A program made the position numbers and the translations under genes. The notes beneath the pieces were generated by a model. It did not search any database, was not told the origin of the DNA, and saw only the letters and a list, made by a program, of their open reading frames with translations. A DNA stretch of 64,000 bases from an uncultured cyanobacterium (GTDB lineage Bacteria > Cyanobacteriota > Cyanobacteriia > PCC-9006 > JAAUQQ01): positions 3,360,001-3,424,000 of the forward strand of contig OY970368.1 of NCBI GenBank assembly GCA_963718615.1. The letters run 5' to 3'. Position 1 is the first letter of the stretch. Each line of letters starts with the position of its first letter. Below are positions 18,423 to 36,049 of this stretch, piece by piece.

Positions 18423-18746
18423 ATGTCAGCAGCCGCTTCGGTGACGGATGCCAATTTCAAGTCGGAAGTGTTGGAAAGTGAGCTTCCCGTACTCGTGGAC
18501 TTTTGGGCTCCTTGGTGTGGCCCCTGTCGGATGGTTGCACCGGTTGTCGATGAAATCGCCCAACAGTACGAAGGTCAAGTCAAAGTGGTCAAGGTCAATA
18601 CGGACGAGAGTCCAAGCGTGGCCAGCCAGTATGGCATTCGGAGCATTCCGACTCTAATGGTCTTCAAGGGAGGGCAGCGGGTCGATATGGTTGTGGGTGC
18701 TGTCCCCAAAGCAACATTGGCCAATACCCTCGAAAAATATCTCTAA
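18423..18746 (+). CDS. trxA: Thioredoxin (m-type)
   Basis: WCGPC active site and 'IRSIPTL'. Confidence 0.96.
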
Positions 18747-18793
18747 GGTCTCCCTAAGCCCGTTTTCGGCATTAGGCCAAAAACAGATTGACG

Positions 18794-18823
18794 AGCGAGG
18801 TCTCAGGACGGGGCCTCGCTTTT
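18794..18823 (+). terminator. Intrinsic terminator after trxA
   Basis: AGCGAGGTCTC...GGGGCCTCGCT followed by TTT. Confidence 0.7.
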
Positions 18824-18906
18824 GCTAGTCTGATTTTGTGGCGTCTGCGCTTCATTCCCTGAGAAGTCATTGGGTACAATGAGAGTCCAATTCGTAAGCA
18901 TCACCT

Positions 18907-19974: not shown

Positions 19975-19995
19975 TTTGATTATCGCATCCTAAGA

Positions 19996-20029
19996 AGAGT
20001 CAATGTTCCAATTTTATAGCATTGACTTT
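19996..20029. terminator. Hairpin after LOG gene, at left edge of AT-rich island
   Basis: AGAGTCAATGT...GCATTGACTTT inverted repeat. Confidence 0.5.
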
Positions 20030-20283
20030 GTGGGCCTAATGATTGCTCTCGACCTTGACTCCAATACAGTTCTTGGCCCAGTAAATTAATATTGTCTAAA
20101 GTTATTCGTGATCATTTTACCAACAGCTTTCTTACGTATTTGAGACAGCTTTATCGATAAATTGGGAAAACTAGAAGCTAAGCACTACACGATTTAATTT
20201 TCTGTTTCTCGGAAAATCGAGGATCTTTATCAGGGTTGCATTTGCTGTACTCCCGTCAGGAAAGTCTACCAGGACTGTGTCTC

Positions 20284-22896
20284 ATGAGTTACGGCCATGT
20301 TTCCGATCTAGCATCTCCTAGGAGCCAGCCAGGTCGGGATGCTGCATCCAATTCTCACCCGACCGACCCGATGTCTTCAGGTTGGTCTGAGTTTCAGCAT
20401 CTGTTCCTAACGCTGAATGAAAGCGATGGCTTTTCTCAGCTTAAACTCGTCTTGGAGAGTATGGATGATGCCATTGTTTTGCTTAATGCTCAGAGAGCAC
20501 TCCTCTTTGTCAACTCAGCCGCTAATCATCTTTTAGGAGATGGGGTGCATAGCTTTGTGCAACAAGATTGGGCAATTAGGTTAAGCGAGCTCTATGGAGC
20601 CCAAAAGTCTGCCCCAATCTCTTTGTCTGCTCAATCTTTTCTAGAGTCTACAGATTCTTCCTCCCTTTCAGAGGCAAAACCTAGAGTCTTTAAAATTTAT
20701 AGCACGGATGAGCCCGAGCAATGGATCACAGTTGTTGAACGTCCTCTCCATAATCCTCAACAGCAGTTGCTTGGCAGTTTAATTATTTGCCGTGATATCA
20801 GTGAACATAAGCGGGTTGAGGAAAAGCTGTTACATGATGCTTTCCATGACAAGCTAACGGGATTGCCCAATCGCAATCTACTACTCAAGCAGTTGGAACG
20901 GGCGATCGCCACTACTCAACAATCCTCTAAATATCAATTTTCTGTTTTATTTTTAGATCTTGATCGGTTTAAGGTCATTAATGATAGCCTTGGTCCCATA
21001 GTTGGAGACCAACTACTGATTGCAGTAGCACAACGACTGAAACGTTGCCTAAGGGTAGAAGATATAATTGTGCGCTTAGGCGGTGACGAATTTGCAATTT
21101 TGTTGAATGATATCAAAGATATCAACTATAGTCAGCAGGTTGCTGATCGAGTCAACCAAGAGCTAGTCTTACCCTTTAATCTGAATGGACATGAAGTGTT
21201 CGCGGATGTCAGTATTGGCATTGCGACTGGTGCCCAGGGGTATGAAAAACCAGAAGAAATTTTGCGGGATGCAGACATTGCAATGCACCATGCTAAAGAA
21301 CTGGGAAAATCCTGTTATCAGTTCTTTGATAAAGCGATGCATATCGATGCAGTCAAGCTGCTTCAGCTTGAAAACGATATTCGTCGAGCAGTTGATCGGA
21401 AGGAATTTCAAGTTCACTACCAACCGATCATCTCACTGCACAGCGAGGAAATTGCAGGATTTGAAGCGTTAGCTCGCTGGCGACATCCTCAACAAGGATT
21501 TATTCCTCCCTCAGAATTTATTCCCGTTGCAGAAGAAACAGGTTTAATCATTCCCCTAGGACTTTGGGTTTTACAGGAAAGCTGTTGGCAGATGAAAGTC
21601 TGGCAACTTCAGTTTCCTGAGGCGCACCAATGGACAATCAGCGTCAACATCTCCGGTCGTCAGTTGATGAAGCCACACTTTGTGGAGCATGTAAAGCATA
21701 TCTTAGCTGACACAAATCTCTCTTCTAAAAACCTAAAGCTGGAAATTACTGAGAGTGTTTTACTAAATAGTAATCAAGAGGTTACTTATATCCTAAAACA
21801 GCTTCAATCAATTGGTATTCAGCTTGCAATGGATGACTTTGGCACTGGATATTCTTCGATGAGCTATCTCTTAGATTTTCCATTTAATACGCTTAAAATT
21901 GATCGATCATTTATTAAGAGCATGGAAGGGTCTAGGAAAAAACTAGGCATTGTTCGTTCCATTATTAACATGTCAAGCAATTTAGATATGAATGTCATTG
22001 CTGAGGGTGTTGAAACTATGGGACATCTGGCTCAGCTCAAAGTTTTAAAGTGTGGCTATGGTCAGGGACATTTCTTTGCTAAAGCATTAGACTCTCAATC
22101 TGCTGAAGGGTTTATTATTTCTGAGCTTGCAAAAGTTGGAAGTAATCGTTATTCCGATCTTGAGATGTCGGTTGAAGAACTGCGATCTCGAGAACAACTA
22201 CTTCTACAAATCGAAAGCCTTCAACAGGAATTAAACGAAATTAAGCAAGAGAAAGTCGATCTTGAAATTTTATTGGAAACAGCCACAGAACATGCGAGCA
22301 TTGTCGAACTAGAATTAGAGCAAGAGATTTTCGACTATCAGAAAAACGAAGAGGCTCTTCAAAAAGCCAATCGTGAACTAGAAAATTTATCTAGCCTAGA
22401 TAGCCTAACTCAGTTGGCAAATCGCCGTCGTTTTGATGAATATATCAGAGAACAATGGGATATCTTAGGTCAACAAAACAAGCCACTCTCGCTTATTCTT
22501 TTGGATGTTGACTACTTTAAAAATTATAACGACCATTATGGACATCAAGCTGGAGATAACTGCCTCATTCAAGTTGCCCAAGTGATGATGCAATCTGTCA
22601 AAAGTTCTCAGGATTTAACGGCTCGATATGGTGGCGAAGAATTCGCAGTGATTATGCCTAATACAGGGGCAGGAAGTGCAATTAGAACTGCTGAGCAAAT
22701 CCGCATCACATTAAAATCTCGCCAAATTTCTCATGCCGGATCTCTAGTTGGTGAACATGTTACAGTCAGTCTTGGTATTGTTAGTTTAGTACCAACCGCA
22801 ACGGGCAAACCAAATGCACTGATTGACTTAGCTGATCGCGCACTCTATGAAGCTAAGTCTCAAGGGCGTGATCGGTTTATCTTATTTTCAAGCTAA
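20284..22896 (+). CDS. PAS-GGDEF-EAL-coiled coil-GGDEF c-di-GMP enzyme
   Basis: GGDEF1 'RVED..RLGGDEF'. EAL 'FEALARW' and 'DDFGTGYSS'. Coiled coil 'EKVDLEILLETATEH'. GGDEF2 'RYGGEEF'. Confidence 0.9.
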   Translation: MSYGHVSDLASPRSQPGRDAASNSHPTDPMSSGWSEFQHLFLTLNESDGFSQLKLVLESMDDAIVLLNAQRALLFVNSAANHLLGDGVHSFVQQDWAIRLSELYGAQKSAPISLSAQSFLESTDSSSLSEAKPRVFKIYSTDEPEQWITVVERPLHNPQQQLLGSLIICRDISEHKRVEEKLLHDAFHDKLTGLPNRNLLLKQLERAIATTQQSSKYQFSVLFLDLDRFKVINDSLGPIVGDQLLIAVAQRLKRCLRVEDIIVRLGGDEFAILLNDIKDINYSQQVADRVNQELVLPFNLNGHEVFADVSIGIATGAQGYEKPEEILRDADIAMHHAKELGKSCYQFFDKAMHIDAVKLLQLENDIRRAVDRKEFQVHYQPIISLHSEEIAGFEALARWRHPQQGFIPPSEFIPVAEETGLIIPLGLWVLQESCWQMKVWQLQFPEAHQWTISVNISGRQLMKPHFVEHVKHILADTNLSSKNLKLEITESVLLNSNQEVTYILKQLQSIGIQLAMDDFGTGYSSMSYLLDFPFNTLKIDRSFIKSMEGSRKKLGIVRSIINMSSNLDMNVIAEGVETMGHLAQLKVLKCGYGQGHFFAKALDSQSAEGFIISELAKVGSNRYSDLEMSVEELRSREQLLLQIESLQQELNEIKQEKVDLEILLETATEHASIVELELEQEIFDYQKNEEALQKANRELENLSSLDSLTQLANRRRFDEYIREQWDILGQQNKPLSLILLDVDYFKNYNDHYGHQAGDNCLIQVAQVMMQSVKSSQDLTARYGGEEFAVIMPNTGAGSAIRTAEQIRITLKSRQISHAGSLVGEHVTVSLGIVSLVPTATGKPNALIDLADRALYEAKSQGRDRFILFSS

Positions 22897-23203
22897 ATTA
22901 GTAAAACTATCTTTTCAAAGAGATACCTTTTAATAACATTTTGATGGACTGTATGAGTGCAAAACTAAATCATTAAAAATTGAGAAAGCTATTTACTTCT
23001 CTACAGACAATTATTAATCAATGCCTTTGGGTCTGATGAACGACATCTACTGGTGCGAATATATCGAGAATTTAAAAAGAAAAAACTAGATTTATAGGCT
23101 CACAAGGCATTGGCAAGGCATTAGCAATGTCTTACCTCCAAAAAGCATAGACTCGACAACCTCCCAAATATTCTAAACAGCCAATAAAGAGAAGAAAAAA
23201 CTT

Positions 23204-23551
23204 TTATTGTATTTCTAGTTTCAGGCTTGGCATCAAACGTTGTAAATTCTTTAGAGATTTACCCTGCCAAGGAATCTCTTCGTTACCTAGCACAGTTAAT
23301 TGAACTGTTTTACGCTTCCTAATGTTGATTACAAACTTAGATAATAAGCTAATTCCCAAGCTATTTAGGAACTGGAGCGAGCGTAAGTCAATTATAATTA
23401 GAGACGACTCTTGGTCTGCCATGGCTTCTAACATAGAGATAATTTGTTGATAATCAGGCTCACTGCCTTGAAATCTCATCGAGCCTTCCAGTCGGATAGT
23501 TGCTTGATTAGAATCGTAAAAGACACAATATTTTTCATGGGAAATTTTCAT
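23204..23551 (-). CDS. STAS-like / SiaC-like (Slr1659-type) partner-switch protein
   Basis: 115 aa. 'IDLRSLQFLNSLGISLLSKFV' carries a STAS-type phosphoacceptor helix, plus 'PWQGKSLKNLQRL'. Alternative start 23599. Confidence 0.75.
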   Translation of the reverse strand: MKISHEKYCVFYDSNQATIRLEGSMRFQGSEPDYQQIISMLEAMADQESSLIIIDLRSLQFLNSLGISLLSKFVINIRKRKTVQLTVLGNEEIPWQGKSLKNLQRLMPSLKLEIQ

Positions 23552-23667
23552 ATGTAATACTTCTTTGAATGGAGATTGAGAACTAGGCATGATATTCAAA
23601 AAATGTGAAGCAGAAAGGATCGTTAACAGCTTTAAAGATGACCAAATCGAACAGTAGTCCTATAAGT

Positions 23668-24267
23668 CTAAATAGCTAGTTGTACCATAGTCGTAACCGT
23701 TATACTATCCTGACTAGTCGACTCATATTCAAACTTCCAGCCTAACTTTGCCGAATAGTCATTTAGCATAGTAAGTAGACCCAGCCCAGAATCAATATGA
23801 TTTTCAGCATTTCTTTCGAGCTGACGAATATAAAGCTCTTCTGGATCTGAATTGACAACCTCTTCAATATAGCGTTGGAAACTTAAAACTGAATGCGGAT
23901 TGATACTGTTTTTGATAAAGAAGATAATTTTGTCGACATCAAAGCAGAGACGAATTTGCGTATAGTCTACTTGGTTTTTATAACTAAACTTCATCGCATT
24001 TTCCAATAGCTCGTTGGCAATGAAGCTTACTGCATCTTTAATTTCAGCTTGTTTTTTCTGAGCCGCAAGATCTTCGTCCTTAATTGGTAAACAAGTTACA
24101 AGATAATCAGCGAGGAAATCAGCAGATATACCATTATTGCGCCATCTTTTCCTAGGAGGAGCACTACTAGGTGTGAAATGCAAAACTAGCTGCTCTCTGC
24201 AAGGAGGTAAGGCATCAATAAAATCACCAAACGTTGTAGCTGTTGGTATTATATTTCTGATAGTCAT
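23668..24267 (-). CDS. GHKL-fold anti-sigma-like Ser/Thr kinase (SiaB-like / Slr1658-type)
   Basis: 'WRNNGISADFLADY', N-box 'NELLENAMKF', G-box 'SGLGLLTM'. Confidence 0.78.
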   Translation of the reverse strand: MTIRNIIPTATTFGDFIDALPPCREQLVLHFTPSSAPPRKRWRNNGISADFLADYLVTCLPIKDEDLAAQKKQAEIKDAVSFIANELLENAMKFSYKNQVDYTQIRLCFDVDKIIFFIKNSINPHSVLSFQRYIEEVVNSDPEELYIRQLERNAENHIDSGLGLLTMLNDYSAKLGWKFEYESTSQDSITVTTMVQLAI

Positions 24268-24295
24268 TGTTTTTCCTCGGAGTAGTTAATTAGTT

Positions 24296-26098
24296 TCAGT
24301 TTTTACGTTTAATAACTAAAAGTGTAATGTCATCGTAAATTTTACTATTGTCGATATGATCGTATAAGTCCTTAATTACAGTATCCTTAATTTCTAAAGC
24401 TGATTGATGACGGCATTGATTGATGCGATCGCACATTCGTTCCAGACCATACAACTTTCCCTCTTTACTCTCCGCTTCTGTAACACCATCAGTATAAAGA
24501 ACAATAACGTCTCCTGGATGAATATAAACCTCGGTTTGATCAATAAAATCAAGAATCTCCTCTTCAAGTCCAATGGGAAAACCCAAATCAACTGTACTAA
24601 TTTGATTAATTTTTCCAGATTGAGTAAAGATTAATACTTCCTCATGCTGTCCACTTATCTTTAAACGCCCCTCATTATAGTCAACTAGCATCAACGTCAG
24701 ATTTTTATCAGTTTCCATCCTCTTAATGTTGTGAAATATGGTTCGATTAACAACATCAAGAATTCGATTTTGTTCCGTTTCTCCATTCTCAATCAATGTT
24801 CGAATTGTGGTCTGGACCATTAACATTAACACGCCACTTTCTAGGCCGTGTCCCGTTACGTCTCCTATACCAATCCGAATAGAGTCTCCATAGCAAATCA
24901 CGTCATAATAATCTCCTCCAACTTCTTCCGCAGGCGTCATAAATCCTGCAATTTCCAGATCCTCAATTTTGGCAAGCTCTTTTTCTTTTGGAAGGATCAT
25001 TTGCTGTAACTTTTGTGTGATTTCTAATTCAGCATTTAGTCGTGTATTTTCTTGTTCTAGCTTTTGATTTAATGTTGTAATTTCATGATTAGCTTGTGCA
25101 AGTTGGTCGAGATATGAAGTTTCTTGATCTCGTAATCTTTTCTTCTCAAGACAAGCATCTACACGTGCTTTGAGTAAAACTGGATTAAAGGGCTTTGCTA
25201 GATAGTCTTCTGCCCCCATTTCAATGCATTTAACGACACTATCAATTTCGTCTAAAGATGAAATCATAATTACAGGTAAATATCGCCAATCGCTGTTTCT
25301 TAGCCATTTTAATACCTGATATCCATTAATCTCTGGCATAATAACATCGAGCAACACTAAATCAAAGCTGCCTGACGTAATTGCTTGAATTGCTTCTAAT
25401 CCACTCGAAACTTCTGTTTTCTGATGCCCTTGTCGCTGAACATATCGACTTAGTAAATCTCGATTGACAGCGTTGTTATCAACAATCAAAATATGAGATT
25501 TATAACTTAGATCAGACTTGTGTTCAGTATCTTTATTCTTAGAATGACAGTTTATTTCTTGTCTGTAGTCGGATAGAGAAGGCGAGAAGTCTGAAATATT
25601 TTCTTGTTGCTTTTGAGTCGAAAACTTTAATGGCATTGTAACTGAGCTTTGTTGGATCAAGTCTTGAAAGAGACAAGCTGCAACTTCTATTTTCTCAACA
25701 TCAGCCCTGAAGGATTTAGGTGCTAAAGGTTTAAGATTTTGGCACTTTTCCAGCAATGGCTGAGCCAAAGGCTGCAACCGTGCTCGAACCCAATGTTTTG
25801 CACAATTCGATATCTCAAAAGCTATATTTTCGTCAATGACAAACTCATCTTGCAATGATTCTATCGTTAAACCGCGACCAATATAGGATACTAAATGTTT
25901 GTTCTTTAGTGAGATCTCATGTAACTGTGACGATAGGATTTGGATATCTTGCAGATCAACTGATTCTTCCAACTCCTCTATTAATAGCTCACTGTAGCCT
26001 TGAATTGCATTTAAAGGCGTATAAAGCTCATGTCTAAAATGAGCAATCCATGAGCTATAGTCTATTAGTTCAGCATCTAATGCTTGAGACACATTCAT
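24296..26098 (-). CDS. HisKA-REC-PP2C (SpoIIE/RsbU-like) phosphatase
   Basis: 'HELYTPLNAIQGYSELL'. REC 'LLDVIMP...AKPF'. PP2C 'GGDYYD', 'GDVTGHG', 'YTDG', 'DDIT'. Confidence 0.88.
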   Translation of the reverse strand: MNVSQALDAELIDYSSWIAHFRHELYTPLNAIQGYSELLIEELEESVDLQDIQILSSQLHEISLKNKHLVSYIGRGLTIESLQDEFVIDENIAFEISNCAKHWVRARLQPLAQPLLEKCQNLKPLAPKSFRADVEKIEVAACLFQDLIQQSSVTMPLKFSTQKQQENISDFSPSLSDYRQEINCHSKNKDTEHKSDLSYKSHILIVDNNAVNRDLLSRYVQRQGHQKTEVSSGLEAIQAITSGSFDLVLLDVIMPEINGYQVLKWLRNSDWRYLPVIMISSLDEIDSVVKCIEMGAEDYLAKPFNPVLLKARVDACLEKKRLRDQETSYLDQLAQANHEITTLNQKLEQENTRLNAELEITQKLQQMILPKEKELAKIEDLEIAGFMTPAEEVGGDYYDVICYGDSIRIGIGDVTGHGLESGVLMLMVQTTIRTLIENGETEQNRILDVVNRTIFHNIKRMETDKNLTLMLVDYNEGRLKISGQHEEVLIFTQSGKINQISTVDLGFPIGLEEEILDFIDQTEVYIHPGDVIVLYTDGVTEAESKEGKLYGLERMCDRINQCRHQSALEIKDTVIKDLYDHIDNSKIYDDITLLVIKRKN

Positions 26099-26100
26099 AG

Positions 26101-26487
26101 CTACTCGTTTGAATAGGGCTGCGTTTTTTTGAGCAATGCTTCGATTTTACTAATCAGGCGTTTTAGATCTACTGGCTTAGTATCATAGTCATCACAACCG
26201 GCTTCTAGTGCCTTTTCGCGATCGCCTGACATTGCATGAGCAGTTAATGCAATAATCGGAATAGATTGAGTTTGAGGATTAAATTTAATATAACGCGTTG
26301 CTTCCCATCCATCTAAAATAGGTAAGCTCATATCCATTAAGACTAAGTCAGGTTTTTCTGCAATACTCATTGTCACACCTTGGGCCCCATCGGAAGCAAT
26401 TGCAACCTCGTAGCCACGTCGACTTAATCGTCGAGACAGCATATCTTGATTCATTTCGTTGTCTTCAACCAGAAGTAGCTTTACCAT
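26101..26487 (-). CDS. Single-domain response regulator (DivK/CheY-like)
   Basis: 'LLVEDN', 'LMDMSLP', 'LTAHAM', 'TKP'. Stop lies 2 nt from the next start. Confidence 0.92.
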   Translation of the reverse strand: MVKLLLVEDNEMNQDMLSRRLSRRGYEVAIASDGAQGVTMSIAEKPDLVLMDMSLPILDGWEATRYIKFNPQTQSIPIIALTAHAMSGDREKALEAGCDDYDTKPVDLKRLISKIEALLKKTQPYSNE

Positions 26488-26548
26488 AAATTTAAAGGTC
26501 AAAATTCTTAAAAAGATTAGGGAAATAGGCAAAAGTTTAAATCTCCAA

Positions 26549-29026
26549 CTAAGATATATATGGTATTAGTAATTGAGAGTTTTCTTTTAACCTTTCCTGT
26601 CTTTCTATTGCTTTTAATAATAGATCTTTTAATGTTGAAAGGAGAATCTTGCTTTCGCATAAATCTTTAATTAAAATTTCCTCAACTTGTCCTTGCAAAC
26701 TTTGACGTTCAATGAAAGTTAGATCTTTAGCAGTCATTAAGATAACTGGGATTGCATCATAGAGACTATCCTGCCGTAAAGCCTGTAAAAACTCAAAACC
26801 ATTCATTTTAGGCATCAAAAGATCTAATATAATTAAATTAGGATAGAAACCTGAATTTAATAGATGAAGACCTTCTATACCATTTTCAGCCGTTTTGACT
26901 ATCCAACCTGCTGGTTCAAGTTGATGCGTTAATAAGTCTCGAATGATAGGATCGTCATCAATGAGCAGGATTTCTCGATTTTCTCCCTCTTGACAACAGC
27001 GTTGTAAAACCTCATATAGTCTTTGACGATCTATTGGCTTTGTTAAATATTCTGAGGCACCGAGCGCATATCCTCGACTCTGATCGTTTACAAAACTCAT
27101 CATAATAACAGGAACCTCAGCTAGTTCTGAGTCGCTCTTAATCTGACTTAAAACAGACCAACCATCAATATCAGGCAAAATTACATCCAAGGTAATTGCC
27201 TGAGGACGGATTTCCCGAGCTAATCGTAGGCCCTCACTTCCTGTCGTAACAGTTTGTACAGCAAATCCCTGTTTAACAAGAAAACGACGCATAATGTCGT
27301 GAACGGCTAGATCATCATCTATGACTAATATCGTTTTTTGTAAGTTAGGCTTTGAAAAGTCTTCGTTTTCCTGGACAACACTTAAATTATTTTTATGGAT
27401 ATCAACCTTTCTAGGTAGTTGAATTATAAATGTGGAACCCTCTCTCAATTGACTGTCTACTTTAATGCTTCCTCCCATCATTAAACAGAACTCCTTAGTA
27501 ATTGCTAATCCAAGTCCTGTTCCTCCATACTTACGGGTAGTAGAAGCATCTGCTTGAGAAAATGCTTGAAATAACTTATTTTGCTGCTCAATCGTCATTC
27601 CAATACCCGTATCTCGAACTTTAAATAGAATCAAGTTTTGATCACTATCTTGATCCTCGACGATTTCTAAATAAATTTTTCCACAACTTGTAAACTTACT
27701 TGCATTGCTCAGTAAGTTTAGTAAGCATTGGCGAATTTTAGTTAGATCAGCATACATTTCGCCAATATCGACAGCACATTCTATAATCAACTGATTTTGC
27801 TGTTTATCTATTAATGGATGTACTGTTGTAACGACGTCCTCTATTAAATCTTGAATTGAAAAAGTTTCTAAGTAAACTTCCATTCGGCCTGCTTCTATTT
27901 TAGATAAATCTAAAATATCGTTGATCAGACCTAGCAAATGCTTTCCCGCACTATGAATTTTAACTAAATCTGGGACAAAATCTTCTTCGCCTAAATCAAG
28001 CGCCTCTTCATGCAGCATCTCACTGTATCCAATAATTGCATTAAGTGGTGTTCGTAGCTCATGACTCATATTGGCAAGAAACATACTCTTCGCCTGATTT
28101 GCCTCTTCTGCAGCGGCTTTTGCCTCACGAGCTTCTTCAATGCTATCCGCTAACTCTGTAGTTCGCTGAATGACCTTCTGTTCTAGAGTTCGATTATAGT
28201 CTGCTAAATCTTCTTTTGCCTTTTCCAAGTCAATTTGGCTACTTTCTAGAGCTTCTGTTTTATTTTGAATCATGCTAGCCATTTGATCAAACGCACGGGA
28301 AATTGTTGCGAGTTCATCAGACCCCTTGAGCTGAGCACGCACACTTAAGATTCCCTCTGATAATAAGTTACTGGCTGAGACTAACCTGGCAGCACGTCGA
28401 GTTAAGACCTCTTCAAAAAAGAACCAAACTGCTATACAAAGAAGGGTAAGAACAAAGGTGGATTCTAGCGATCGCTTTAAAGCATCTCCATAGGTCTGTT
28501 GGCGTAGGCGCTTTAAGTCATAATCTAGGAACAAAATACCAATTTTTGAGGGTAATATTTCGCCTGGATCTGACTTGAAAGCAACTGGATATAGGGCTTG
28601 AATAGATTGATGATCTGGACTGATTAAAACTTCACCTGCCTGCATTTGACGAATTTTTTCTATCTTTACATGGAGTTGATCTGCGGGAGTTTCTTCAATT
28701 GAAAGACCCTTGAGAAGCTGAGATGTCGTTAGAAGTACCTTATTTTGATCATCGAAGAGAATCGCAGACTTTAATTCAACTTCGTCTTCTAACTGACTGA
28801 TCATAAGAGCAGCACCATCCCCGCTGACGCGACGATACAAGTATTCCAAGATACCAGAGGTATGGTCGCCCATAAATCTGACGTAGTTGCTTACATTTTG
28901 CTCATTGCGACGATGAGCGAGGTATACTTCACGCCGAAATGAGTAAAAGCTAGAAAAACTACCTAAGATTAGTAAAATTAACGGAATTGAAAGGCGTAGG
29001 GGTGGTGGAAACCGCTTTGACATCAT
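26549..29026 (-). CDS. Membrane hybrid sensor histidine kinase (TM-periplasmic-TM-HAMP-HisKA-HATPase-REC-REC)
   Basis: Two TM segments, HAMP '[13 protein letters not shown]', '[12 protein letters not shown]', '[10 protein letters not shown]', 'DTGIG', 'GGTGLGL', two receivers. Confidence 0.92.
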
Positions 29027-29064
29027 CAGCTCCTAAGAAAGGACAAACAACAATCGTTGTTTGA

Positions 29065-30093
29065 CTAAGGACGAATACTTTTGATGACGCTGTCGTCCAT
29101 CAGTAGAGTTGGATCAACTGTCTTTTTCAATAAACCGTTCTGTTTCATAATTGTTACAAGATGTTTTGAGCTTTGTACTAAAGTAGATTCTTGACTTCCT
29201 AATAGAGTTTTATTTTCTTCTAGACTCGGGACTCTTACTCCTTTTAAGGATGCTAAGAAGTCTGTAGACGACATATTGTAATCAGCAGCCAAGAGTTCAG
29301 CAGATTTTTGAGGATTTGCTTCTAGATATTCTTGAGCCTTAAACCATCCTTCCAGTAGGTGTTTTAGATTACGATGTTGATTTTTGAGCGTCTCTGTATG
29401 CACACCCAGAACATCGACAATCTCTCCAGGAATCTGGCTACTATCAAATAGGTGATTTGCACCTTCCGTAACCAGTCGAGAGCTCATCGGTTCATAGGTC
29501 ACTAATCCATCAACCTTGTCTTTTTTAAAGGCTTGACCATGTTCGAAGGTTGCCAAAGGGACGATTTGCAAATCCTTAGTTGAAAGATTTACGGTTTCTA
29601 GAGCTCGGGTTAGAAGAAACGCACCTAATCCTGATGATTCAACGCCGACTCGCTTCCCTGATAGTTCCTTTAAACTGGAAATGTCAGGCTTGCCTAAAAT
29701 CGCATCGGCTCCATGGGAGCTGTCAATAACTAAGACAAAGCGCATATCCTGCATGACCTCAGCGATTGGCATTGCATCGTTCATCGTCAATGCAACGGCG
29801 TCAAGTTCACCATTTCGAAAGGCTTTGAACATTGCACTATTGGAAGAATAGGTTGTTAGGTTGGCAACATTAGAATCGTAATACTTTAAGTCCTTTGCAA
29901 GATAAAAGCTTGCATATCCTGGCCAAACAACAACACCTATCCTGATAGGATTTTCTCCAATTTGAATACAGGACGGCAAAGAAACGGTACAGAACAAAGA
30001 AACGAGAAGAAGGGAAATCCATTGAACTTTCAATTGAGAAGCAAACAACTTGATACAAGACAAAGTTTTTGCTTTCAAGAGACTTAGATCCAT
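29065..30093 (-). CDS. NMT1/SsuA-like periplasmic substrate-binding lipoprotein
   Basis: Lipobox-like 'SLPSC', 'IGVVVWPGY..FYLA', 'D.S.GADAI', 'TYEP', 'PGEIVDVL'. Confidence 0.85.
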   Translation of the reverse strand: MDLSLLKAKTLSCIKLFASQLKVQWISLLLVSLFCTVSLPSCIQIGENPIRIGVVVWPGYASFYLAKDLKYYDSNVANLTTYSSNSAMFKAFRNGELDAVALTMNDAMPIAEVMQDMRFVLVIDSSHGADAILGKPDISSLKELSGKRVGVESSGLGAFLLTRALETVNLSTKDLQIVPLATFEHGQAFKKDKVDGLVTYEPMSSRLVTEGANHLFDSSQIPGEIVDVLGVHTETLKNQHRNLKHLLEGWFKAQEYLEANPQKSAELLAADYNMSSTDFLASLKGVRVPSLEENKTLLGSQESTLVQSSKHLVTIMKQNGLLKKTVDPTLLMDDSVIKSIRP

Positions 30094-30146
30094 GACTCAA
30101 TACCTCAAAAATAAAGAGAAAAACTATATTGGTTTATTAATGAAAC

Positions 30147-31199
30147 CTATTGGTTAGACGCTAGTGCTTCAATAAGATGATTGTCAATCAATTCTTCTAG
30201 TGGATAAATCTTTTGAAGATGGTGACTTTGTGCCAATTCTTCTTGAAGCTTATGTACACATTTTTCTAACCATGATTCTTTGAGAGAGAGCATCCTTGCA
30301 TTTTCCTCTAAAGTATATTCATGAATTCCTTGCATTGCTTTGAAAAGTTCTTTACTCATTAGCTTATTGCGAGCAAAAATTATTTTAGCCGCATCTTGAG
30401 GCTTGTTTCTGTAGTATTCTTGTGCTTTAAACCAACCGTTTATGAGCTCTTGAAGAGCTAATTTATAGCTTTCTATTGAATCATCTCGAACCAACAAAAC
30501 ATCAACGATCTCGTTCAGCATTTGATGACTACTAAAGACTTCTTGAGCTCCTTCTGCTATTAGCTGAGAAAGAATTGGTTCATAGGTGATAATCGTAGAA
30601 ACTGATGACTGACGGAATGAATTAATTTGATCATTCAGATCAAGGGGAACAACCTGAATATCCTCTATCGTCAGTCCTGCCAGATCGAGTAGACGTGTGA
30701 GCATTAAGGTTCCCCGGCTCGAAGCTTCTATAGCAACAGTTTGTTTTTTTAATTCATAGAGAGATTTTATAGGATTTCGAGTAATAACAGCATCTGCCCC
30801 ACAGGAACTACTCAAGATCAAGACAATTTTGAGATGCGGATCTGTATCTGAAAGAAGCAAAGCATCTCCCAATGAAAGCAGTAATCCGTCAAGTTGCTGA
30901 TTGCGAAAGGCACGATTTTTATCTTCAACGGTAGGATAATTAATCAGCCTAATATCTTGTTGATCGTAATAGCCTAAACGTTGAGCAAGATAAACGTTGT
31001 TATAAGAAAGGCCAGTAGTTGTTCCAATTCTGAGAGGAGCTGCATTCGAGGTGCAACTCACAAAGGCTAGACTAATAGCGCTAATGAGTCCAACCAAAAG
31101 CGTCTTGAAGCGATGTTTTTTGGGAACCGGCGATCGCCAAGCGGAATATATTCTATTGATCAATCTAATTGATCTAAGTGGTAGAGAACGGCGCATCAC
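30147..31199 (-). CDS. Second, divergent NMT1/SsuA-like substrate-binding lipoprotein
   Basis: Lipobox-like 'AFVSC', 'SCGADAVI', 'TYEP', 'EIVDVL'. Paralog of the neighbour but lacks WPGY. Confidence 0.8.
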   Translation of the reverse strand: MMRRSLPLRSIRLINRIYSAWRSPVPKKHRFKTLLVGLISAISLAFVSCTSNAAPLRIGTTTGLSYNNVYLAQRLGYYDQQDIRLINYPTVEDKNRAFRNQQLDGLLLSLGDALLLSDTDPHLKIVLILSSSCGADAVITRNPIKSLYELKKQTVAIEASSRGTLMLTRLLDLAGLTIEDIQVVPLDLNDQINSFRQSSVSTIITYEPILSQLIAEGAQEVFSSHQMLNEIVDVLLVRDDSIESYKLALQELINGWFKAQEYYRNKPQDAAKIIFARNKLMSKELFKAMQGIHEYTLEENARMLSLKESWLEKCVHKLQEELAQSHHLQKIYPLEELIDNHLIEALASNQ

Positions 31200-31648
31200 C
31201 TTTACTTACCCAACAAACTGCTGGAAATTGACTCATTATCCTTTTGACCCATTAATCGCCTTTAACTCCGTCTCTGTTTTATAGAAAAGCGGTTTATCTA
31301 CGGCTTTGGATAGGATGTCCTTCAGTATGCCCAGCGAGATTTTAAAACCGACAAAATTTGATTAGTCCGTAAAACCTAGGAAGCACTTGAGTCATGATTC
31401 TCTAGGAAACCGTGTTTTTACTCAATTCTCCTTAGTCAGGGTTATCTATGCTAGATATGTAGATCTTGTCTATGGGCTTCATCTCTATTACTTAGAAGCT
31501 GTCTGCTTAAATGTTATCCGTCTTGTCGTTTTCCATCTTGATTGCTATCTAGCGTTGATCACTCAGTTGATTCATCAAGTTGGTACACTCAATTAGTACG
31601 TCGCCATTCTCATCCATCATTCTTGTACGTTGTAGAGTTTTGAACACA

Positions 31649-32872
31649 ATGAAATCCTCTGTGCATAGGCTGAATGACATTACCCAGCATGAAATTGAGG
31701 CACTCAAACATGAATATAATATGTCTGATGCTCATACACATCAATCTCAGTCTCCAAGCCAGAGGAAAATTGTAGAGCGTCTACCACAGCTTTGGTTTGA
31801 CGCAGAGAATAAGCGACAACATGAGTTAGAGCAATGCTTCTTAGAAAATTTCTTTCGGGTACAGGGACGACCTTGGGCGCTTAAAAATAAGCTTCCTATG
31901 CTGGTCTATTCAGCTTCAATTGCAATGGCAATTACTGCAAACTACCTGCTTAAGAAAAAGCTGACTGTAAGTTTAATTCATCCATGTTTTGACAACTTGG
32001 TCGATCTGATGAAAAACATGCAGGTTCCACTTCAAGCACTTGAAGAGGAATGGCTGTATGATCCCGAAATGATCTATGAGAATCTCGAAAAGAATGTCAA
32101 GAGTGACGCTATCTTCTTGGTTGATCCTAACAATCCATCTGGATTTACGCTATATCAGCAAGGAATAGTCGGTTGGCAAGAGCTAATCCGGTTTGCGAAA
32201 GAAAACAAAAAGTTGCTGATTTTTGACTTTTGCTTTGCAGCTTTCATGCTGAATAACAAAAATCTACAGCTCTTCGACATTTATGAAATGTTGGAGACTT
32301 CTGGTGTAAGCTATATTGCGATGGAGGATACGGGTAAGACTTGGCCGCTACAAGATGCTAAGGTTGCTATGCTTAAAAGCAGTGCTGATCTTTACGCGGA
32401 TATCTACAATCTTTATACTGCTTATCTTCTGAACGTATCACCTTTTATACTGAATATCGTAACTCAGTATATTCTTGATTCTGAAAAAGATAAATTTGCA
32501 TCAGTGCACGGTTTGCTGAGCCGCAATCGTGCGATCGCTGAAGGAATTCTCAAAGATTCTATTTTAGAACCAATGACTCCTTTGGTGAATGTTAGTGTGA
32601 TGTGGTGTCGAATCAACAGTGAACAGATTCAATCTAGTCAGCTCAAGACTTACTTGACAGAATTTGACATTCACATTTTACCTGGAACTTTCTTTTTCTG
32701 GAATTCACCCCAGCGCGGCGAACGCTTTATTCGCTTGGCTTTAGCGCGTAATACTGAAACTTTCGAACCTGCCGTACGAGCCCTTCGAGATGCTGTTGAC
32801 CAATACGAAGTTTTCCTCTCCGCTCAGAAAACTCAGCGGGATTTATGCTCCCCTAGTAACGCCCTTTTATAA
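31649..32872 (+). CDS. rohP: PLP-dependent L-arginine oxidase, RohP/MppP family (aminotransferase class I/II fold)
   Basis: Family N-terminus 'DITQHEIEAL...YNMSDAHTHQSQS', 'HPCFDNL', 'VDPNNPSG', 'DFCFA', PLP-Lys motif 'EDTGKTWP.QDAK', 'LNVSPF', 'RLALAR'. Recognised from memory of the RohP/MppP sequences. Confidence 0.85.
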   Translation: MKSSVHRLNDITQHEIEALKHEYNMSDAHTHQSQSPSQRKIVERLPQLWFDAENKRQHELEQCFLENFFRVQGRPWALKNKLPMLVYSASIAMAITANYLLKKKLTVSLIHPCFDNLVDLMKNMQVPLQALEEEWLYDPEMIYENLEKNVKSDAIFLVDPNNPSGFTLYQQGIVGWQELIRFAKENKKLLIFDFCFAAFMLNNKNLQLFDIYEMLETSGVSYIAMEDTGKTWPLQDAKVAMLKSSADLYADIYNLYTAYLLNVSPFILNIVTQYILDSEKDKFASVHGLLSRNRAIAEGILKDSILEPMTPLVNVSVMWCRINSEQIQSSQLKTYLTEFDIHILPGTFFFWNSPQRGERFIRLALARNTETFEPAVRALRDAVDQYEVFLSAQKTQRDLCSPSNALL

Positions 32873-33644
32873 GGGACAGTTTGATCAAGACTCACTCTAT
32901 CGCCTGATGGATACGATTGAGCCCTTTGCAGAGGGATTTGTACCCTGTTTGAGTTCTGGCGAAGGTCAGTTTCTTTCCCTCTCAACTTGGCAGAATGTTA
33001 TCCAGGCAACGCGTCAATATACTCAGAAGGTAGTTATTGCGGGGATCAAACGTGAAACTCTACAAGAGACAATAGCGTTAGGTAAACTGGCACAACAGTT
33101 GGGTTGTGATGCCATTATTGTGCCGGTACCTGTCTCAGATGATAGGGTTACCGTTGGTTACTTCAATCAAATTACCGCTGCGATCGCCCTACCCATTGTT
33201 ATCTATAATACGGAAAGCCATTCTATTCAATCACTAGATGGTTTAAGGCAACTGGAGAGCTTACCTCAAATCATTGCTATTAAGGATTCTTCCATGAATG
33301 AAGAATTTTTTAAGCTCCTTTGTAATTTGAGAACTCAAGCGCAGCTCCGTCTTTCGGTTCTACAGGGATTTGAACATCTTTTGCAAGTCCCCCCTGGTTG
33401 TGATGGCTATCTCATTGCCTTGGCAAATCTTGAACCAGAGCTTTGCCATCGAATGTTGCTTGAAAATTCTGATGTGATCAATAGTGAAATTCTAGATTGC
33501 TTTTGGCGTTATAACCTGGGTGCTGATTGGTTTGTGAGTATGAAGGCAATTTTGATGGCTCGCCAAGTCATTCGCTCTGCGGAACAAGTTAATCTAATGG
33601 TTCAACCCGATCTTAAATCGGTTCCTAATTTGGCGATCGCATAG
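32790..33644 (+). CDS. DHDPS/NAL-family class I aldolase, RohR-like (4-hydroxy-2-ketoarginine retro-aldolase candidate)
   Basis: 'PLVTPF', 'CLSSGEG', 'IYN', Schiff-base 'IKDSS'. Overlaps the 3' end of the rohP-like gene. Confidence 0.78.
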   Translation: MLLTNTKFSSPLRKLSGIYAPLVTPFYKGQFDQDSLYRLMDTIEPFAEGFVPCLSSGEGQFLSLSTWQNVIQATRQYTQKVVIAGIKRETLQETIALGKLAQQLGCDAIIVPVPVSDDRVTVGYFNQITAAIALPIVIYNTESHSIQSLDGLRQLESLPQIIAIKDSSMNEEFFKLLCNLRTQAQLRLSVLQGFEHLLQVPPGCDGYLIALANLEPELCHRMLLENSDVINSEILDCFWRYNLGADWFVSMKAILMARQVIRSAEQVNLMVQPDLKSVPNLAIA

Positions 33645-33716
33645 CCATCATCAAGCTTAACTAAGCATGCTTCCATCATTCCAATGATCGAGTGGATAAA
33701 AACAAGTTAACTGATT

Positions 33717-33750
33717 GCCTGCGATTTTTTTTATGAGTTGCAGGCTTTTT
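33717..33750 (+). terminator. Probable terminator after the aldolase gene
   Basis: GCCTGCGATT...AGTTGCAGGC followed by TTTTT. Confidence 0.6.
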
Positions 33751-33956
33751 CGATATTTAATTTGATCAATAACCCAATGCTGTGTAATTTACTTAAGCTT
33801 GAATGTTTTCAAATAAATTTGAAATTTTAGGCTACTTAGTCTGATATTGCTTTTGTTTTATTCATAAAAAGTTCGGATTGTATCTATGAACTAGGAAGAT
33901 GGAAATAGAGATGGCTATCACGGTTATTTCTTGCTTATCTTCATTGCTTTATTTCT

Positions 33957-34457
33957 ATGTTGGGCTGGATCTTCTTGGCTTTTGCAGTTTGTTTGGATGT
34001 TCTGGGCACATTTGCTGCAAAATATGCGAATGGGTTTACAACACTGATTCCATCACTCATTACTATTGGGGCCTATTGTTTATCATTTACAGCGTTGACC
34101 TTTTCGATCAAAACACTCGATGTCAGCGTGGCTTATCCGGTTTGGACTGGCTCTGCAATCTTTTTAGTGGCTGTTTTAGGGGCTGTATTCTTCCACGAAA
34201 CGGTCAATTTCTTTAAAGTCTTTTCAACACTTTTGGTCGTCTTTGGCATCGTTGGCTTAGTGGTTAGTAGCCAGCCCGATGCAGCGGCTTGTCCGCCGGA
34301 GGTAGAACAAACTCAGCACCTACTCCAGAGCAGTAATCGCCCAAGGCTGTCCATGTCTCCTGTCTTTCATCGATTAGGCACACCTGTACTCTATGCAACT
34401 GTTAAGGGATACTCTGCCAACGTCATTCGTTTAAAGCCAGAGTTTTCTGAAAACTAA
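33957..34457 (+). CDS. SMR (EmrE/QacE-like) small transporter with Asp14 and ~60-aa C-terminal extension
   Basis: Four TM segments: 'W..L..AV.LDV.GT...K...GF', 'SF..L', 'VAYPVWTG', 'F.E', 'G...L'. Confidence 0.85.
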   Translation: MLGWIFLAFAVCLDVLGTFAAKYANGFTTLIPSLITIGAYCLSFTALTFSIKTLDVSVAYPVWTGSAIFLVAVLGAVFFHETVNFFKVFSTLLVVFGIVGLVVSSQPDAAACPPEVEQTQHLLQSSNRPRLSMSPVFHRLGTPVLYATVKGYSANVIRLKPEFSEN

Positions 34458-34495
34458 GGATGGCAACGCAATCTCGTGCTTAGGTTGCCATCCTT
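34456..34495. terminator. Hairpin between convergent SMR and pepA (right edge of island)
   Basis: AAGGATGGCAAC...GTTGCCATCCTT perfect 12-bp stem. Confidence 0.75.
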
Positions 34496-34516
34496 GAGAG
34501 ACTCAACAGGAAATTT

Positions 34517-34551
34517 TAAGACAAGAATTCTAAGACAAGAATTCTAAGACA
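34517..34551 (+). repeat. 14-bp tandem repeat x2.5 (TAAGACAAGAATTC)
   Basis: Directly visible just past the pepA stop. Confidence 0.8.
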
Positions 34552-34558
34552 GAAACTC

Positions 34559-36049
34559 CTAGGACAATACCCAGTTGACTAGCGTCCGAACCCCATAACC
34601 AGTTGCTCCAGCCGGACTGTAACCATGCTCTTTGTCAGCCCAGACGGGTCCTGCAACGTCGAGATGTGCCCAAGCGGAGGTTTCTTTGACAAATTCCCGT
34701 AGGAATAAAGCCGCAGTGATCGACCCCCCTGCCCGTGGACCTGTGTTTTTCATGTCAGCGATCGGGGATTTGATGCCTTCAAAATACCGATCTTCTAGGG
34801 GCATTTGCCAAAGTTTTTCACCCGCCAAATCCGCTGCTGCCTTGAGGGAAGTTGCAAGATCATCATCAATGCTCCAGAGCCCCGCAATGTCATTGCCCAA
34901 GGCCACGACACAGGCTCCTGTCAAGGTTGCTAGGTCAACGATCGCATCCACTCCCAGCTGATCAGCATAGACCAAAGCATCTGCTAGCGTGAGCCGTCCT
35001 TCTGCGTCGGTGTTGTTCACTTCAATGGTTTTGCCGTTGGACGCGGTCAGAATGTCGCCGGGGCGCATGGCATGACCACTAATCATATTCTCCGTCACAG
35101 CGCTGATAAAATGAACCTCCACATCGGGTTTAAGTTGGGCGATCGCCTTAGCCGCACCCAGCGTCGCAGCCGCTCCCCCCATATCCATTTTCATCGTCTC
35201 AATACCACTCCCCGGCCCCTTGAGATTGAGTCCTCCGGAATCAAAAGTTAATCCTTTGCCGACGATCGCCAGCTTTTTGCGCGGGGACCCCTCGGGACGA
35301 TAGATCAAATGAATAAACTTAGGGGGTAAATCAGACGCCTGGGCAACGCCCAGGAATGCGCCCATACCTCGGGCCTCACAAGCCTCTTTTTCTAATATTT
35401 CCAAGCTTAAGCCATAATCATTGGCCAGTTGCTGAGCAATGTCTGCCATGGCCGGGGGATCAATCCGGTTCGGTGGTGCCGCGACCAACTGCCTTGCTAA
35501 AACTACACCGGAAACAATTTTTTCGGCTTGGGCGATCGCCGCCTCTTGCTGGTCCAGATCGAGTAAGCTTACTCTCTGAATTTCCGAAGGATTCTCATCG
35601 TCTGGTTTCGACTTAAAGCGATGATCTTCGTACAGTGCTAACAAGACCCCTTCCACCAAAGCTTGCGTGGTGGCTGCCGGATCGCCGCTCCAGCAAGGCA
35701 AACTCAATGCCAACGTCTGGCACCGCTGTTTTTGAGCCGCCTTGGCGGCGGTGGCCGCTGCGCGTCGCAGACCCTCCAGCGTCAACGTTTCTGAGGCCCC
35801 TAAGCCCACCAGGATGAGCTTTTTAACGGGACTGTCCCGCCCGACCCGTAGAACCGTACTGCTATTGCTTTTGCCTGTGAACTTGGCATCAGCGATCGCA
35901 TCCGAAAGAGCGCCCTCCAAGCGCTCATCCAACGCGCTCCAATTGCTTGAAACCGTCCCATCCTCTTGAATATCCGTCTCGCAGAGCCCCAACGCTAGGG
36001 CATCACCGGTCCAACTCAACGCGGAAGTAGAAGTTGCTTGAAAATCCAT
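34559..36049 (-). CDS. pepA: Leucyl aminopeptidase (M17)
   Basis: '[10 protein letters not shown]', 'MKMDMGG', 'NTDAEGRL', 'LATLTGA'. Confidence 0.96.

Follow-up and report, generated by a model that had tools for sequence, protein, structure and literature searches.

Does a cyanobacterium sense a small molecule that it makes itself from arginine, and does it respond through cyclic di-GMP (c-di-GMP)? This question is raised by a gene cluster at positions 20284 to 34457 of a 64,000-nucleotide stretch of DNA (the window; positions 3,360,001 to 3,424,000 of contig OY970368.1) that lies within the complete, single-contig genome of an uncultured cyanobacterium (6.10 Mb; labelled G000). One arm of the cluster carries the genes rohP and rohR together with a gene for a small multidrug resistance (SMR) transporter; the other, across a divergent intergenic region, encodes two solute-binding proteins (SBPs), a hybrid histidine kinase, a phosphatase and a partner-switching pair, and ends at a GGDEF/EAL enzyme. 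A first-pass annotation had proposed that the two arms form a self-contained circuit in which an arginine-derived signal is made, exported, sensed and relayed to c-di-GMP. The parts of that circuit, the wiring from the kinase to the c-di-GMP enzyme and the inheritance of both arms as a unit within one cyanobacterial family are well supported by the computational analysis reported here, although "self-contained" proved too strong a word. As for what the chain senses, it is possible, and we put it forward tentatively, that it monitors an extracellular compound of the roh pathway, most likely exported 2-aminoimidazole (2-AI).

Gene content and setting

Open reading frames (ORFs) and Pfam domains agree gene for gene with the gene content first given for both arms. 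The seven genes of the left arm are separated by gaps of 2-68 nt, as expected from their description as a tightly spaced run, and the cluster is indeed an AT-rich block, with a per-gene GC content of 0.36-0.45 across 20236-34457 versus 0.53-0.57 in the genes beyond (0.48 in a gene for a LOG-like protein). Judged by the names of sister metagenome-assembled genomes (MAGs), the cluster-bearing family is Pseudanabaenaceae.

The roh arm and its expected product

The right arm opens with a plus-strand gene (31649-32872, likely start ATG 31649) for a pyridoxal phosphate (PLP) enzyme, present as a single copy in G000, that matches PDB entry 6c3a at E 9.4e-126 (423 bits). Its matches to the MppP structures 5dj1 (4.3e-47) and 7n79 (6.3e-42) are far weaker, and the NCBIfam MppP model gives 164 bits, under its cut-off of 450. 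The PDB file labels 6c3a "Uncharacterized protein"; we take it to be the RohP of S. cattleya. K253 (in EDTGKTWP) and the segment D50-Q55 (DAHTHQ), both presumably catalytic, are invariant in seven homologues. By sequence the PLP enzyme is a RohP orthologue, with a predicted activity as an O2- and PLP-dependent L-arginine oxidase/hydroxylase.

The next gene (32790-33644, plus strand), which overlaps rohP by 83 nt, encodes a RohR-type retro-aldolase of the DHDPS family (Pfam DHDPS 7.1e-21, with DHDPS-family matches in the PDB). The Schiff-base lysine K165 and the catalytic tyrosine Y139 are invariant in six sequences, two of which come from loci of the type rohP-rohQ-rohR-rohS (P-Q-R-S loci). 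Its identity is 43-65% with aldolases from loci without rohS and 30-33% with those from L010 and L012, which are P-Q-R-S loci. The overlap between rohP and the aldolase gene is kept in sister loci (about 77-95 nt), and in proteobacterial and Patescibacteria loci the two genes lie apart.

Excerpts of PMC10724926 describe a route in which arginine is converted to 2-AI by RohP, RohR (a retro-aldolase) and RohQ (a cyclodehydratase), after which RohS leads on to azomycin; a title in the reference list of PMC13133933 calls the RohQ reaction "a spontaneous cyclodehydration". The family DUF6190 can be equated with RohQ, as the ORF that separates rohP from the aldolase gene in L012 matches the PDB chains 9oq8 and 9c5w, which are named RohQ, at E 6e-41. 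In G000, no RohQ was found with PF19689 (the control genomes gave no match either) or by tblastn with four RohQ queries, and neither a PRMT-like gene, the presumed rohT, nor a cluster-linked RohS of the HDO family was found in this genome. The sole HDO homologue of G000 lies 455 kb away and is 33% identical over 160 aa. That homologue occurs in ten genomes without a RohP match and was not found in four RohP-bearing relatives; we rejected the idea that RohS acts in trans, since the distribution of the distant HDO gene does not track RohP. At G000:C1:3846747-3850342 (L244:3748-7343) a 393-aa HDO-family protein is followed by a small methyltransferase, with a divergent agmatine-deiminase-like gene, and this region is kept at 50-66% identity in ten other cyanobacteria.

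The cluster is thus like the azomycin cluster rohPQRST of Streptomyces and Pseudomonas in having a RohP orthologue followed by a DHDPS-family aldolase with the shared invariant lysine and tyrosine, and unlike it in that RohQ (DUF6190), a linked RohS and the PRMT-like gene were not found in the genome, in the overlapping order P-R, and in the placement of its RohP in a separate clade without rohS. The first identification of the pair as RohP and RohR in a setting that lacks rohS therefore holds. Since rohQ, rohS and rohT were not found in the genome, the likely end product is 2-AI and not azomycin; the cluster is not of the azomycin type, and its expected product would be 2-AI or the open-chain aldehyde rather than a 2-nitroimidazole.

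An orphan binding protein and its predicted partner kinase

The left arm begins with two minus-strand genes for NMT1-type SBPs, each with a hydrophobic N-terminus ending in Cys. SBP2 (29065-30093) is a lipoprotein-like orphan binding protein, and SBP1 (30147-31199), the one beside rohP, is a diverged paralogue that is 35% identical to it. The hybrid sensor kinase that follows (26549-29026, minus strand) has the architecture transmembrane (TM)-periplasmic-TM-HAMP-HisKA-HATPase-REC-REC, with two TM segments around approximately 155 periplasmic residues. Homologues of SBP2 in other cyanobacteria (38-47% identity) have a same-strand kinase directly downstream in 10/10 loci fetched, and the kinases at all ten align with the window kinase from residue 4-6 onward; therefore, the match takes in the periplasmic domain. 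Altogether, an orphan SBP stands beside a kinase with a periplasmic domain at 5/5 cluster loci and at 10/10 other cyanobacterial loci, and among 43 ORFs scanned in the neighbourhood of the latter we found neither ABC transporter genes nor an enzyme that recurs. Because nothing recurs among these ORFs, the neighbours of free-standing SBP-kinase modules were dropped as a source of clues to the ligand. The recurrent pairing and the lack of transporter genes nearby agree with the original suggestion that the SBP serves a membrane sensor, and the evidence supports a predicted role for it as the partner of the kinase. As judged from these gene neighbourhoods, the orphan-SBP/kinase pair is a sensor module widespread in cyanobacteria.

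TorT/TorS and LuxP/LuxQ are SBP-dependent sensor kinase systems. The window module is like them in that a periplasmic SBP without a transporter is encoded beside a hybrid kinase with a periplasmic domain of its own. It is unlike them in that the SBP is NMT1-type, there are two SBPs, and the kinase scores below the NCBIfam cut-offs for TorS (333.9 versus 676.5) and LuxQ (273.3 versus 1200). At three of the ten other loci (L156, L160 and L162) we observed GAF domains and then REC-GGDEF-EAL genes. Because such genes follow the SBP-kinase module there, c-di-GMP output may be common among sensors of this family.

The wide occurrence of the module bears directly on what the chain senses. One possibility is that the parts are as described and no ligand links the arms. 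The chain would then sense the usual ligand of the module, while rohP, rohR and the SMR gene would make 2-AI for some other purpose, such as an anti-biofilm or allelopathic one, and the arms would share a lifestyle programme (life on surfaces or in aggregates) or have arrived on one island. The independence of the SBP2-kinase module from RohP speaks for this explanation, as the module occurs not only at the 10/10 other loci but in seven genomes without a RohP match (G013, G028, G033, G042, G044, G047 and G059); three further genomes with the module lay outside the RohP sample. Also in its favor, synthetic 2-AI derivatives are known biofilm inhibitors, according to excerpts of PMC5816815. We nevertheless regard a cluster with no ligand link as somewhat unlikely, and the evidence that counts against it comes from the first binding protein and its junction with rohP, as set out below.

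A partner switch that resembles SiaABCD in fold

Downstream of the kinase gene lie four more minus-strand genes. A single-domain response regulator (26101-26532; Pfam REC 2.8e-25; 92% identity in L001) is followed by a phosphatase with a DHp-like (H-box)-REC-PP2C architecture (24296-26098; Pfam SpoIIE 7.8e-38, REC 1.1e-26), in which HisKA reaches 26.6 bits, near its cut-off of 26.9. The H-box reads FRHELYTPLN, and the Pfam scan of this protein gave no HATPase_c domain; the ATPase-less H-box domain may provide a phosphotransfer step from the hybrid kinase. Then come a 199-aa GHKL Ser/Thr kinase (23668-24267; DUF6272) and a 131-aa protein without a Pfam match (23204-23599).

The 199-aa protein belongs to the NCBIfam slr1658 family at equivalog level (250.1 bits versus a cut-off of 200) and the 131-aa protein to the slr1659 family (141.9 versus 100). 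AlphaFold (AF2) models of the two have pLDDT values of 85.4 and 88.5, respectively. The top PDB folds for the 131-aa model are those of SiaC (6k4f, 6kkp, 7e6g and 6kko; TM 0.67-0.75), ahead of generic STAS proteins, with a Foldseek E of 1.5e-5 for 6k4f. The 199-aa model matches the folds of SpoIIAB, SiaB, UsfX and RsbW (SiaB 6kko_A, E 4.2e-5, TMq 0.53). At the level of sequence, NCBIfam SiaB_fam gives 21.8 bits on the kinase-like protein, against a cut-off of 85, and a profile of 24 slr1658 sequences found no match among PDB chains at E up to 1. The slr1658-like kinase has the conserved segments NELLENAMKF and SGLGLL, and the FLNSSG loop of the SiaC-like protein is invariant, with N79, S80 and G82 invariant in 22 sequences. 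The labels "GHKL kinase" and "STAS-like" used in the first-pass annotation, and its comparison of the module with SiaABCD, are thereby substantiated and made more specific.

In SiaABCD of Pseudomonas aeruginosa, SiaA is a PP2C phosphatase, SiaB a kinase, SiaC their switch partner and SiaD a cyclase (excerpts of PMC8457831 and PMC7647112). The window likewise has a PP2C, a kinase with the SiaB/SpoIIAB fold, a switch protein with the SiaC fold, and a stalk-preceded GGDEF domain modelled as the dock. It differs in that its sequence families are slr1658 and slr1659, with SiaB and SiaD scores below cut-off; in that its phosphatase is fused to a REC domain and an ATPase-less DHp domain and would be fed by an SBP-dependent hybrid kinase; and in that its target is a composite PAS-GGDEF-EAL-GGDEF protein with a stalk motif of its own. 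The modelled folds support the view that the left-arm switch works like SiaABCD without being a member of the Sia sequence families.

This switch is common in cyanobacteria. Of 151 cyanobacteria sampled, 57 have a member of the slr1658 family, and of 20 loci fetched, 19 have an slr1659 partner and 15 a PP2C homologue, the PP2C part of the window protein being 42-59% identical to those fifteen. At seven of the 20 the adjoining gene encodes a GGDEF protein that aligns with the C-terminal stalk and GGDEF domain of the window protein; Synechocystis Slr1657 is itself listed as a GGDEF protein (in an excerpt of PMC10124867). No SBP was found at the 20 fetched loci, and compared with them, fusion of the PP2C to REC and the ATPase-less H-box domain occurs only in the roh-linked clusters. 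The left arm, by its gene content, is therefore a mosaic of two widespread cyanobacterial modules, an SBP-kinase pair and a PP2C/slr1658/slr1659 switch. That the switch is so frequent away from roh genes, and there without an SBP, is a further point for the explanation in which no ligand joins the arms.

Predicted docking on the GGDEF/EAL protein

The left arm converges on a plus-strand gene (ATG at 20284, end at 22896) for a PAS-GGDEF-EAL-coiled-coil stalk-GGDEF protein, the likely output enzyme of the switch; its ORF opens upstream at TTG 20236. RVED+GGDEF, EAL and GGEEF motifs can be read in the sequence, and the C-terminal GGDEF domain scores 256.8 bits with NCBIfam SiaD, below the cut-off of 290. 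The stalk carries a motif (residues 675-695, DLEILLETATEH..., encoded at 22258-22320, plus strand) that is common to the GGDEF genes adjoining slr1658/slr1659 in other cyanobacteria, where it is usually present in two copies; the window protein and its orthologues have one. G000 encodes at least 13 paralogues of this protein, and a six-frame scan of the genome found the stalk motif in one GGDEF-bearing ORF only. A stalk repeat profile built without the instances from the window and from the orthologue in G001 picked out the window protein at E 1.2e-8 among 21,813 ORFs of G000, with the next best at 0.025.

A model of the complex between two stalk-GGDEF chains and the SiaC-like protein scored 0.63, versus 0.00 for the best of three controls, above a mark that is passed by 58 of 80 solved complexes and by 2 of 110 mismatched pairs, although the pass may partly reflect memory because a like complex, SiaC-SiaD (7e6g), is solved. 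Runs agreed in at least 96% of contacts, the partner pLDDT was at least 78, and the modelled interface consists of the stalk motif and the FLNSS loop of the SiaC-like protein. These results support the predicted docking of the SiaC-like protein on the stalk of the GGDEF/EAL protein, and so favor the claim made at the outset that the switch is linked to this dual-GGDEF/EAL enzyme, to which the motif is confined in G000.

Inheritance of the two arms

A different answer to our question is that the two arms are accidental neighbours, that is, two unrelated units that were joined once in an ancestor of the family and have not yet parted, with the GGDEF/EAL gene merely the next gene on the flank. 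All of the cluster-bearing genomes belong to one family, so every co-occurrence may go back to a single event. Moreover, the GGDEF/EAL gene does lie away from the cluster in G001, G002 and G006. Its orthologues in G001, G005 and G006 (61-66% identity) are on contigs other than that of the cluster, and in G001 and G005 they sit beside the left-flank genes of the window. The GGDEF/EAL gene thus belongs to the conserved synteny of the left flank and not to the mobile unit.

The remainder of the cluster behaves as a unit. In 4/4 sister loci, one of which (L004) is truncated at contig ends, the divergent SBP1-rohP junction is kept, with 48-92% protein identity, and other junctions are broken, at the GGDEF/EAL gene in three relatives and between rohR and the SMR gene in two. 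RohP, slr1658 and SBP2 are present in the same 4/7 family genomes. In the other three, G003, G004 and G007 (62-88% complete), we did not find RohP, slr1658, SBP2, the SMR gene or a full-length GGDEF/EAL orthologue. The GGDEF/EAL orthologue itself is present in 3/4 cluster-bearing sisters and 0/3 of the other family genomes. The two arms therefore do co-occur elsewhere, so that a lack of co-occurrence, one of the outcomes that the first-pass annotation said would refute it, did not arise, and both are inherited as a unit within this family. We consider an accident very unlikely. Identities of 48-92% mean long divergence, during which rearrangements took place all around and spared the SBP1-rohP junction; the GGDEF/EAL protein stands apart from its paralogues in the stalk motif and the complex model; and SBPs have become associated with roh genes independently in other phyla. 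The endurance of the SBP1-rohP junction while neighbouring junctions broke also counts against two arms that share no ligand.

Distribution of roh genes

RohP loci numbered 63 in a scan of genomes and 80 in a scan of metagenomes. Of the former, 48 are well flanked and comprise 24 P-Q-R-S, 8 P-Q-R without S, 10 P-R and 6 with P alone; 42 of these have an aldolase match next to RohP, and a PRMT-like gene follows rohS in many of the P-Q-R-S loci. We made a quick tree of 53 RohP rows, leaving out 11 with short or interrupted matches (L009, L085, L092, L103, L115, L122, L124, L130, L132, L133 and L136). The five cluster RohPs form one clade (SH-aLRT 99) that is sister (91) to a group from proteobacterial MAGs, and the two together nest in a mostly Patescibacteria group without rohS. 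Microcoleus, Lyngbya and Crocosphaera have RohP homologues at 47-50% identity (L099, L110, L111, L118 and L139) that form a clade of their own (100), apart from the cluster enzymes. At four of these five loci no match to the aldolase, RohQ or RohS adjoins the gene, and at L118 the sole match is a weak one to the aldolase (22%); these homologues presumably serve a different pathway.

Among 60 relatives, RohP was found in 4/7 same-family genomes and in 0/53 genomes of other families. This family-restricted occurrence, the low GC content and the position of the enzymes in the RohP tree fit horizontal acquisition of the cluster roh genes by an ancestor of the family. The low GC content of the whole block, and the grouping of its RohP with proteobacterial and Patescibacteria rather than other cyanobacterial enzymes, would also be expected if the arms had arrived together on an island with no ligand to connect them.

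In Patescibacteria/CPR MAGs (L086, L087, L089-L093, L107, L132, L134, L135 and L138), RohP is usually accompanied by the aldolase, sometimes by RohQ and never by RohS. The presence of RohP in such small genomes is unexpected for an O2-dependent enzyme of secondary metabolism. In the Bacteroidota locus L129, a 361-aa ORF after RohP (L129:4939-6024) has a DUF6190 N-terminal half and an aldolase-like C-terminal half and could be a fusion of RohQ and RohR.

Is a roh compound the ligand?

Which of the two binding proteins, if either, would read a roh compound? We compared them at 43 residues that are invariant in nine SBP2 homologues from other cyanobacterial sensor loci. SBP1 of the window keeps 29 of the 43 (SBP1s overall, 23-30), and it carries substitutions at four acidic positions that do not vary across the SBP2 family, D124, E186, D195 and D217. 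A second SBP is found in the five roh-linked clusters, intact in four and degenerate in one (L002), versus 0/10 of the other SBP-kinase loci, and it is the one that adjoins rohP. SBP1, cluster-specific and fast-evolving, is therefore the only good candidate for a product receptor, as far as sequence comparison can suggest one. The restriction of this extra paralogue to roh-linked clusters and its place beside rohP count against two arms without a common ligand.

Binding proteins near roh genes outside cyanobacteria provide another line of evidence. NMT1 SBPs recur beside roh genes without rohS in two other phyla, in proteobacterial MAGs and in Bacteroidota, which again is not expected if no ligand links such genes. 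In the proteobacterial MAG loci L005 and L009, an NMT1 SBP and a 4HB chemoreceptor (MCP) lie near the roh genes, and five related proteobacterial MAGs have the MCP and the SBP joined to a PRMT-like methyltransferase in one module. The methyltransferase, presumably RohT, was seen at L005:4976-6061, at L009:324-1433, and in L247 and L248.

An alternative that these loci bring forward is that the SBPs bind the substrate of the pathway or an external guanidino compound, which the chain (elsewhere the chemoreceptor or an importer) reports or captures; RohP and RohR would then process the compound, freeing pyruvate and ammonia, and the SMR protein would expel guanidino waste. The L129 operon has an uptake arrangement, in which genes for an NMT1 SBP, an ABC permease and an ATPase come first, immediately ahead of RohP, and the pairing of SBP and chemoreceptor in L005 and L009 is as in nutrient taxis. 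A catabolic use of rohPR(Q) without rohS, common in small-genome Patescibacteria, is conceivable, and TIGR03427, a family of SBPs associated with urea carboxylase, matches SBP2 below threshold (108.8 bits versus a cut-off of 333.9). Even so, scavenging seems to us quite improbable. The pathway would free one of the four arginine nitrogens, to judge from the published chemistry in the excerpts at hand, a poor economy for a phototroph. Importer genes are missing from the cyanobacterial and L005-type loci, and the RohP of L129 is a long-branch outlier at 42% identity. No NMT1-family SBP is known to bind arginine.

The transporter of the right arm is encoded at 33957-34457 (plus strand) and is a divergent SMR protein of 166 aa, a predicted exporter. 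The family assignment made in the first-pass annotation stands; a clear guanidinium exporter it is not. Like the Gdx/SugE guanidinium exporters, it has SugE as its best NCBIfam model and 8vxu and 6wk5 as its best PDB matches, and it keeps the equivalents of the Tyr switch and Trp62. Unlike them, it has a sub-cut-off score, an Asp in place of the central Glu, a Gly for W16 and a Thr for S42 (excerpts of PMC9574504 give the roles of the central Glu and of the W16/S42/W62 hydrogen-bond stack); it has a 60-aa tail and is not accompanied by a guanidine riboswitch. The central residue is Asp in two of three orthologues and Glu in L002. The SMR gene was found in G000, G001, G002 and G006, always beside PepA, which amounts to 4/5 cluster-bearing genomes (3/4 sisters and G000) and 0/3 cluster-lacking relatives. 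The C-terminal extension of approximately 60 aa is conserved, ends in LKPEFS and is unusual for a family of proteins of approximately 105-110 aa. A cassette of four genes (for a DUF2282 small membrane protein, an MbnB/TglH/ChrH-like enzyme, a DUF2063 protein and an Rce1-like protease) follows the aldolase gene at L002:12593-15682 and L003:12584-15704, and in L002 it sits between the aldolase and SMR genes. This cassette resembles bufferin-type RiPP cassettes.

Several findings weigh against the reading that the chain monitors a roh compound. The survey of RohP neighbourhoods, which finds the two arms together in sister loci, finds an SBP near RohP only rarely elsewhere: within 6 kb, at loci with at least 3 kb of upstream sequence, in only 7/55 genome loci and 1/33 metagenome loci, a scarcity that suits an accidental neighbourhood as well. 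Orthology of the RohP-adjacent SBPs across phyla was rejected, as they are not reciprocal best hits of the window SBPs. A distance of about 108 kb separates the MCP-SBP module from rohPRQ in one proteobacterial genome, and the SBP of L129, as part of an importer, suggests uptake rather than sensing. SBP2 of the window keeps 38 of the 43 invariant residues and the cluster SBP2s keep 36-42; SBP2 thus looks ancestral and probably binds something unrelated to roh, as would be expected with no ligand link. The fast evolution of SBP1 (mean identity of 45% among four, degenerate in one of five genomes) also fits decay. The SMR protein, with its replaced residues, is under every NCBIfam cut-off (SugE, 73.3 bits versus 126), and a terminator-like hairpin of 11 pairs and a T-run (33717-33745, plus strand) parts its gene from the aldolase gene as a separate transcription unit. 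To these points may be added the occurrence of the SBP-kinase module in genomes without RohP, the location of the GGDEF/EAL gene away from the cluster in sisters, and the kinship of all of the sister genomes, which are MAGs that are 68-93% complete.

If the chain nevertheless monitors a roh compound, the circuit may work as follows. RohP would oxidise L-arginine and RohR would cleave the product to pyruvate and guanidinoacetaldehyde, which would cyclise spontaneously to 2-AI, and the divergent SMR cation exporter would probably move 2-AI out of the cell. The periplasmic lipoprotein SBPs would act on the hybrid kinase, SBP1 sensing the roh compound and SBP2 retaining the ligand that is bound in other cyanobacteria. 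A phosphoryl group would pass from a REC domain of the kinase to the ATPase-less DHp domain and on to the REC domain of the PP2C protein, in an order suggested by the domains. The PP2C would dephosphorylate the SiaC-like protein and the SiaB-like kinase would reverse this, and the free SiaC-like protein would dock on the stalk of the PAS-GGDEF-EAL-GGDEF protein and shift c-di-GMP. The scheme taken as a whole, in which 2-AI is a self-made extracellular signal exported by the SMR protein, read by SBP1 and passed through the hybrid kinase and a SiaABC-like switch to the GGDEF/EAL protein, with a parallel version in proteobacteria that reads this compound through an SBP and a chemoreceptor, is in our judgement unlikely in full.

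Other features of the locus

The divergent intergenic region holds a single well-conserved block (31415-31452, plus strand) in an alignment of five such regions, promoter-like, upstream of rohP and of inferred function. No palindrome was seen in this alignment of the SBP1-rohP region, and an operator shared by the arms was dropped as a candidate, as one promoter-like block is conserved and a palindrome was not seen. Rfam models applied to 18000-37000, with E allowed to reach 1, gave no riboswitch and only Yfr1, which lies outside the cluster, and control of the cluster by a riboswitch or other RNA was rejected on that result. This cyanobacterial sRNA is at 18238-18301 (plus strand; 58.3 bits versus a gathering score of 38), just upstream of the gene for the LOG-like protein, and its presence identifies the DNA as cyanobacterial.

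Significance

Among the papers listed in literature searches that did not cover supplements (those of roh papers could hold distribution tables), we found no functional study of slr1658/slr1659 or cyanobacterial SiaABCD-like system, no description of a class of roh loci without rohS, and no description of an aminoimidazole/c-di-GMP cluster. Even without a link through a ligand, the analysis points to a large class of roh loci that lack rohS across cyanobacteria, proteobacterial MAGs and Patescibacteria, and to a widespread cyanobacterial sensor module made of an orphan SBP and a kinase. Structural models and genomic evidence further suggest that slr1658 and slr1659 are the cyanobacterial counterpart of SiaB and SiaC and that a docking motif can be recognised on the cyclases they target.

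Should the chain indeed read the product of the roh genes, cyanobacteria would have a defined circuit that signals through a small molecule, and the signal would represent an autoinducer of a new chemical class, for which the synthase, the exporter, the receptor and the output through c-di-GMP are encoded on one island. As the parent compound of synthetic inhibitors of biofilms, 2-AI would also gain a natural part in controlling biofilms and c-di-GMP.

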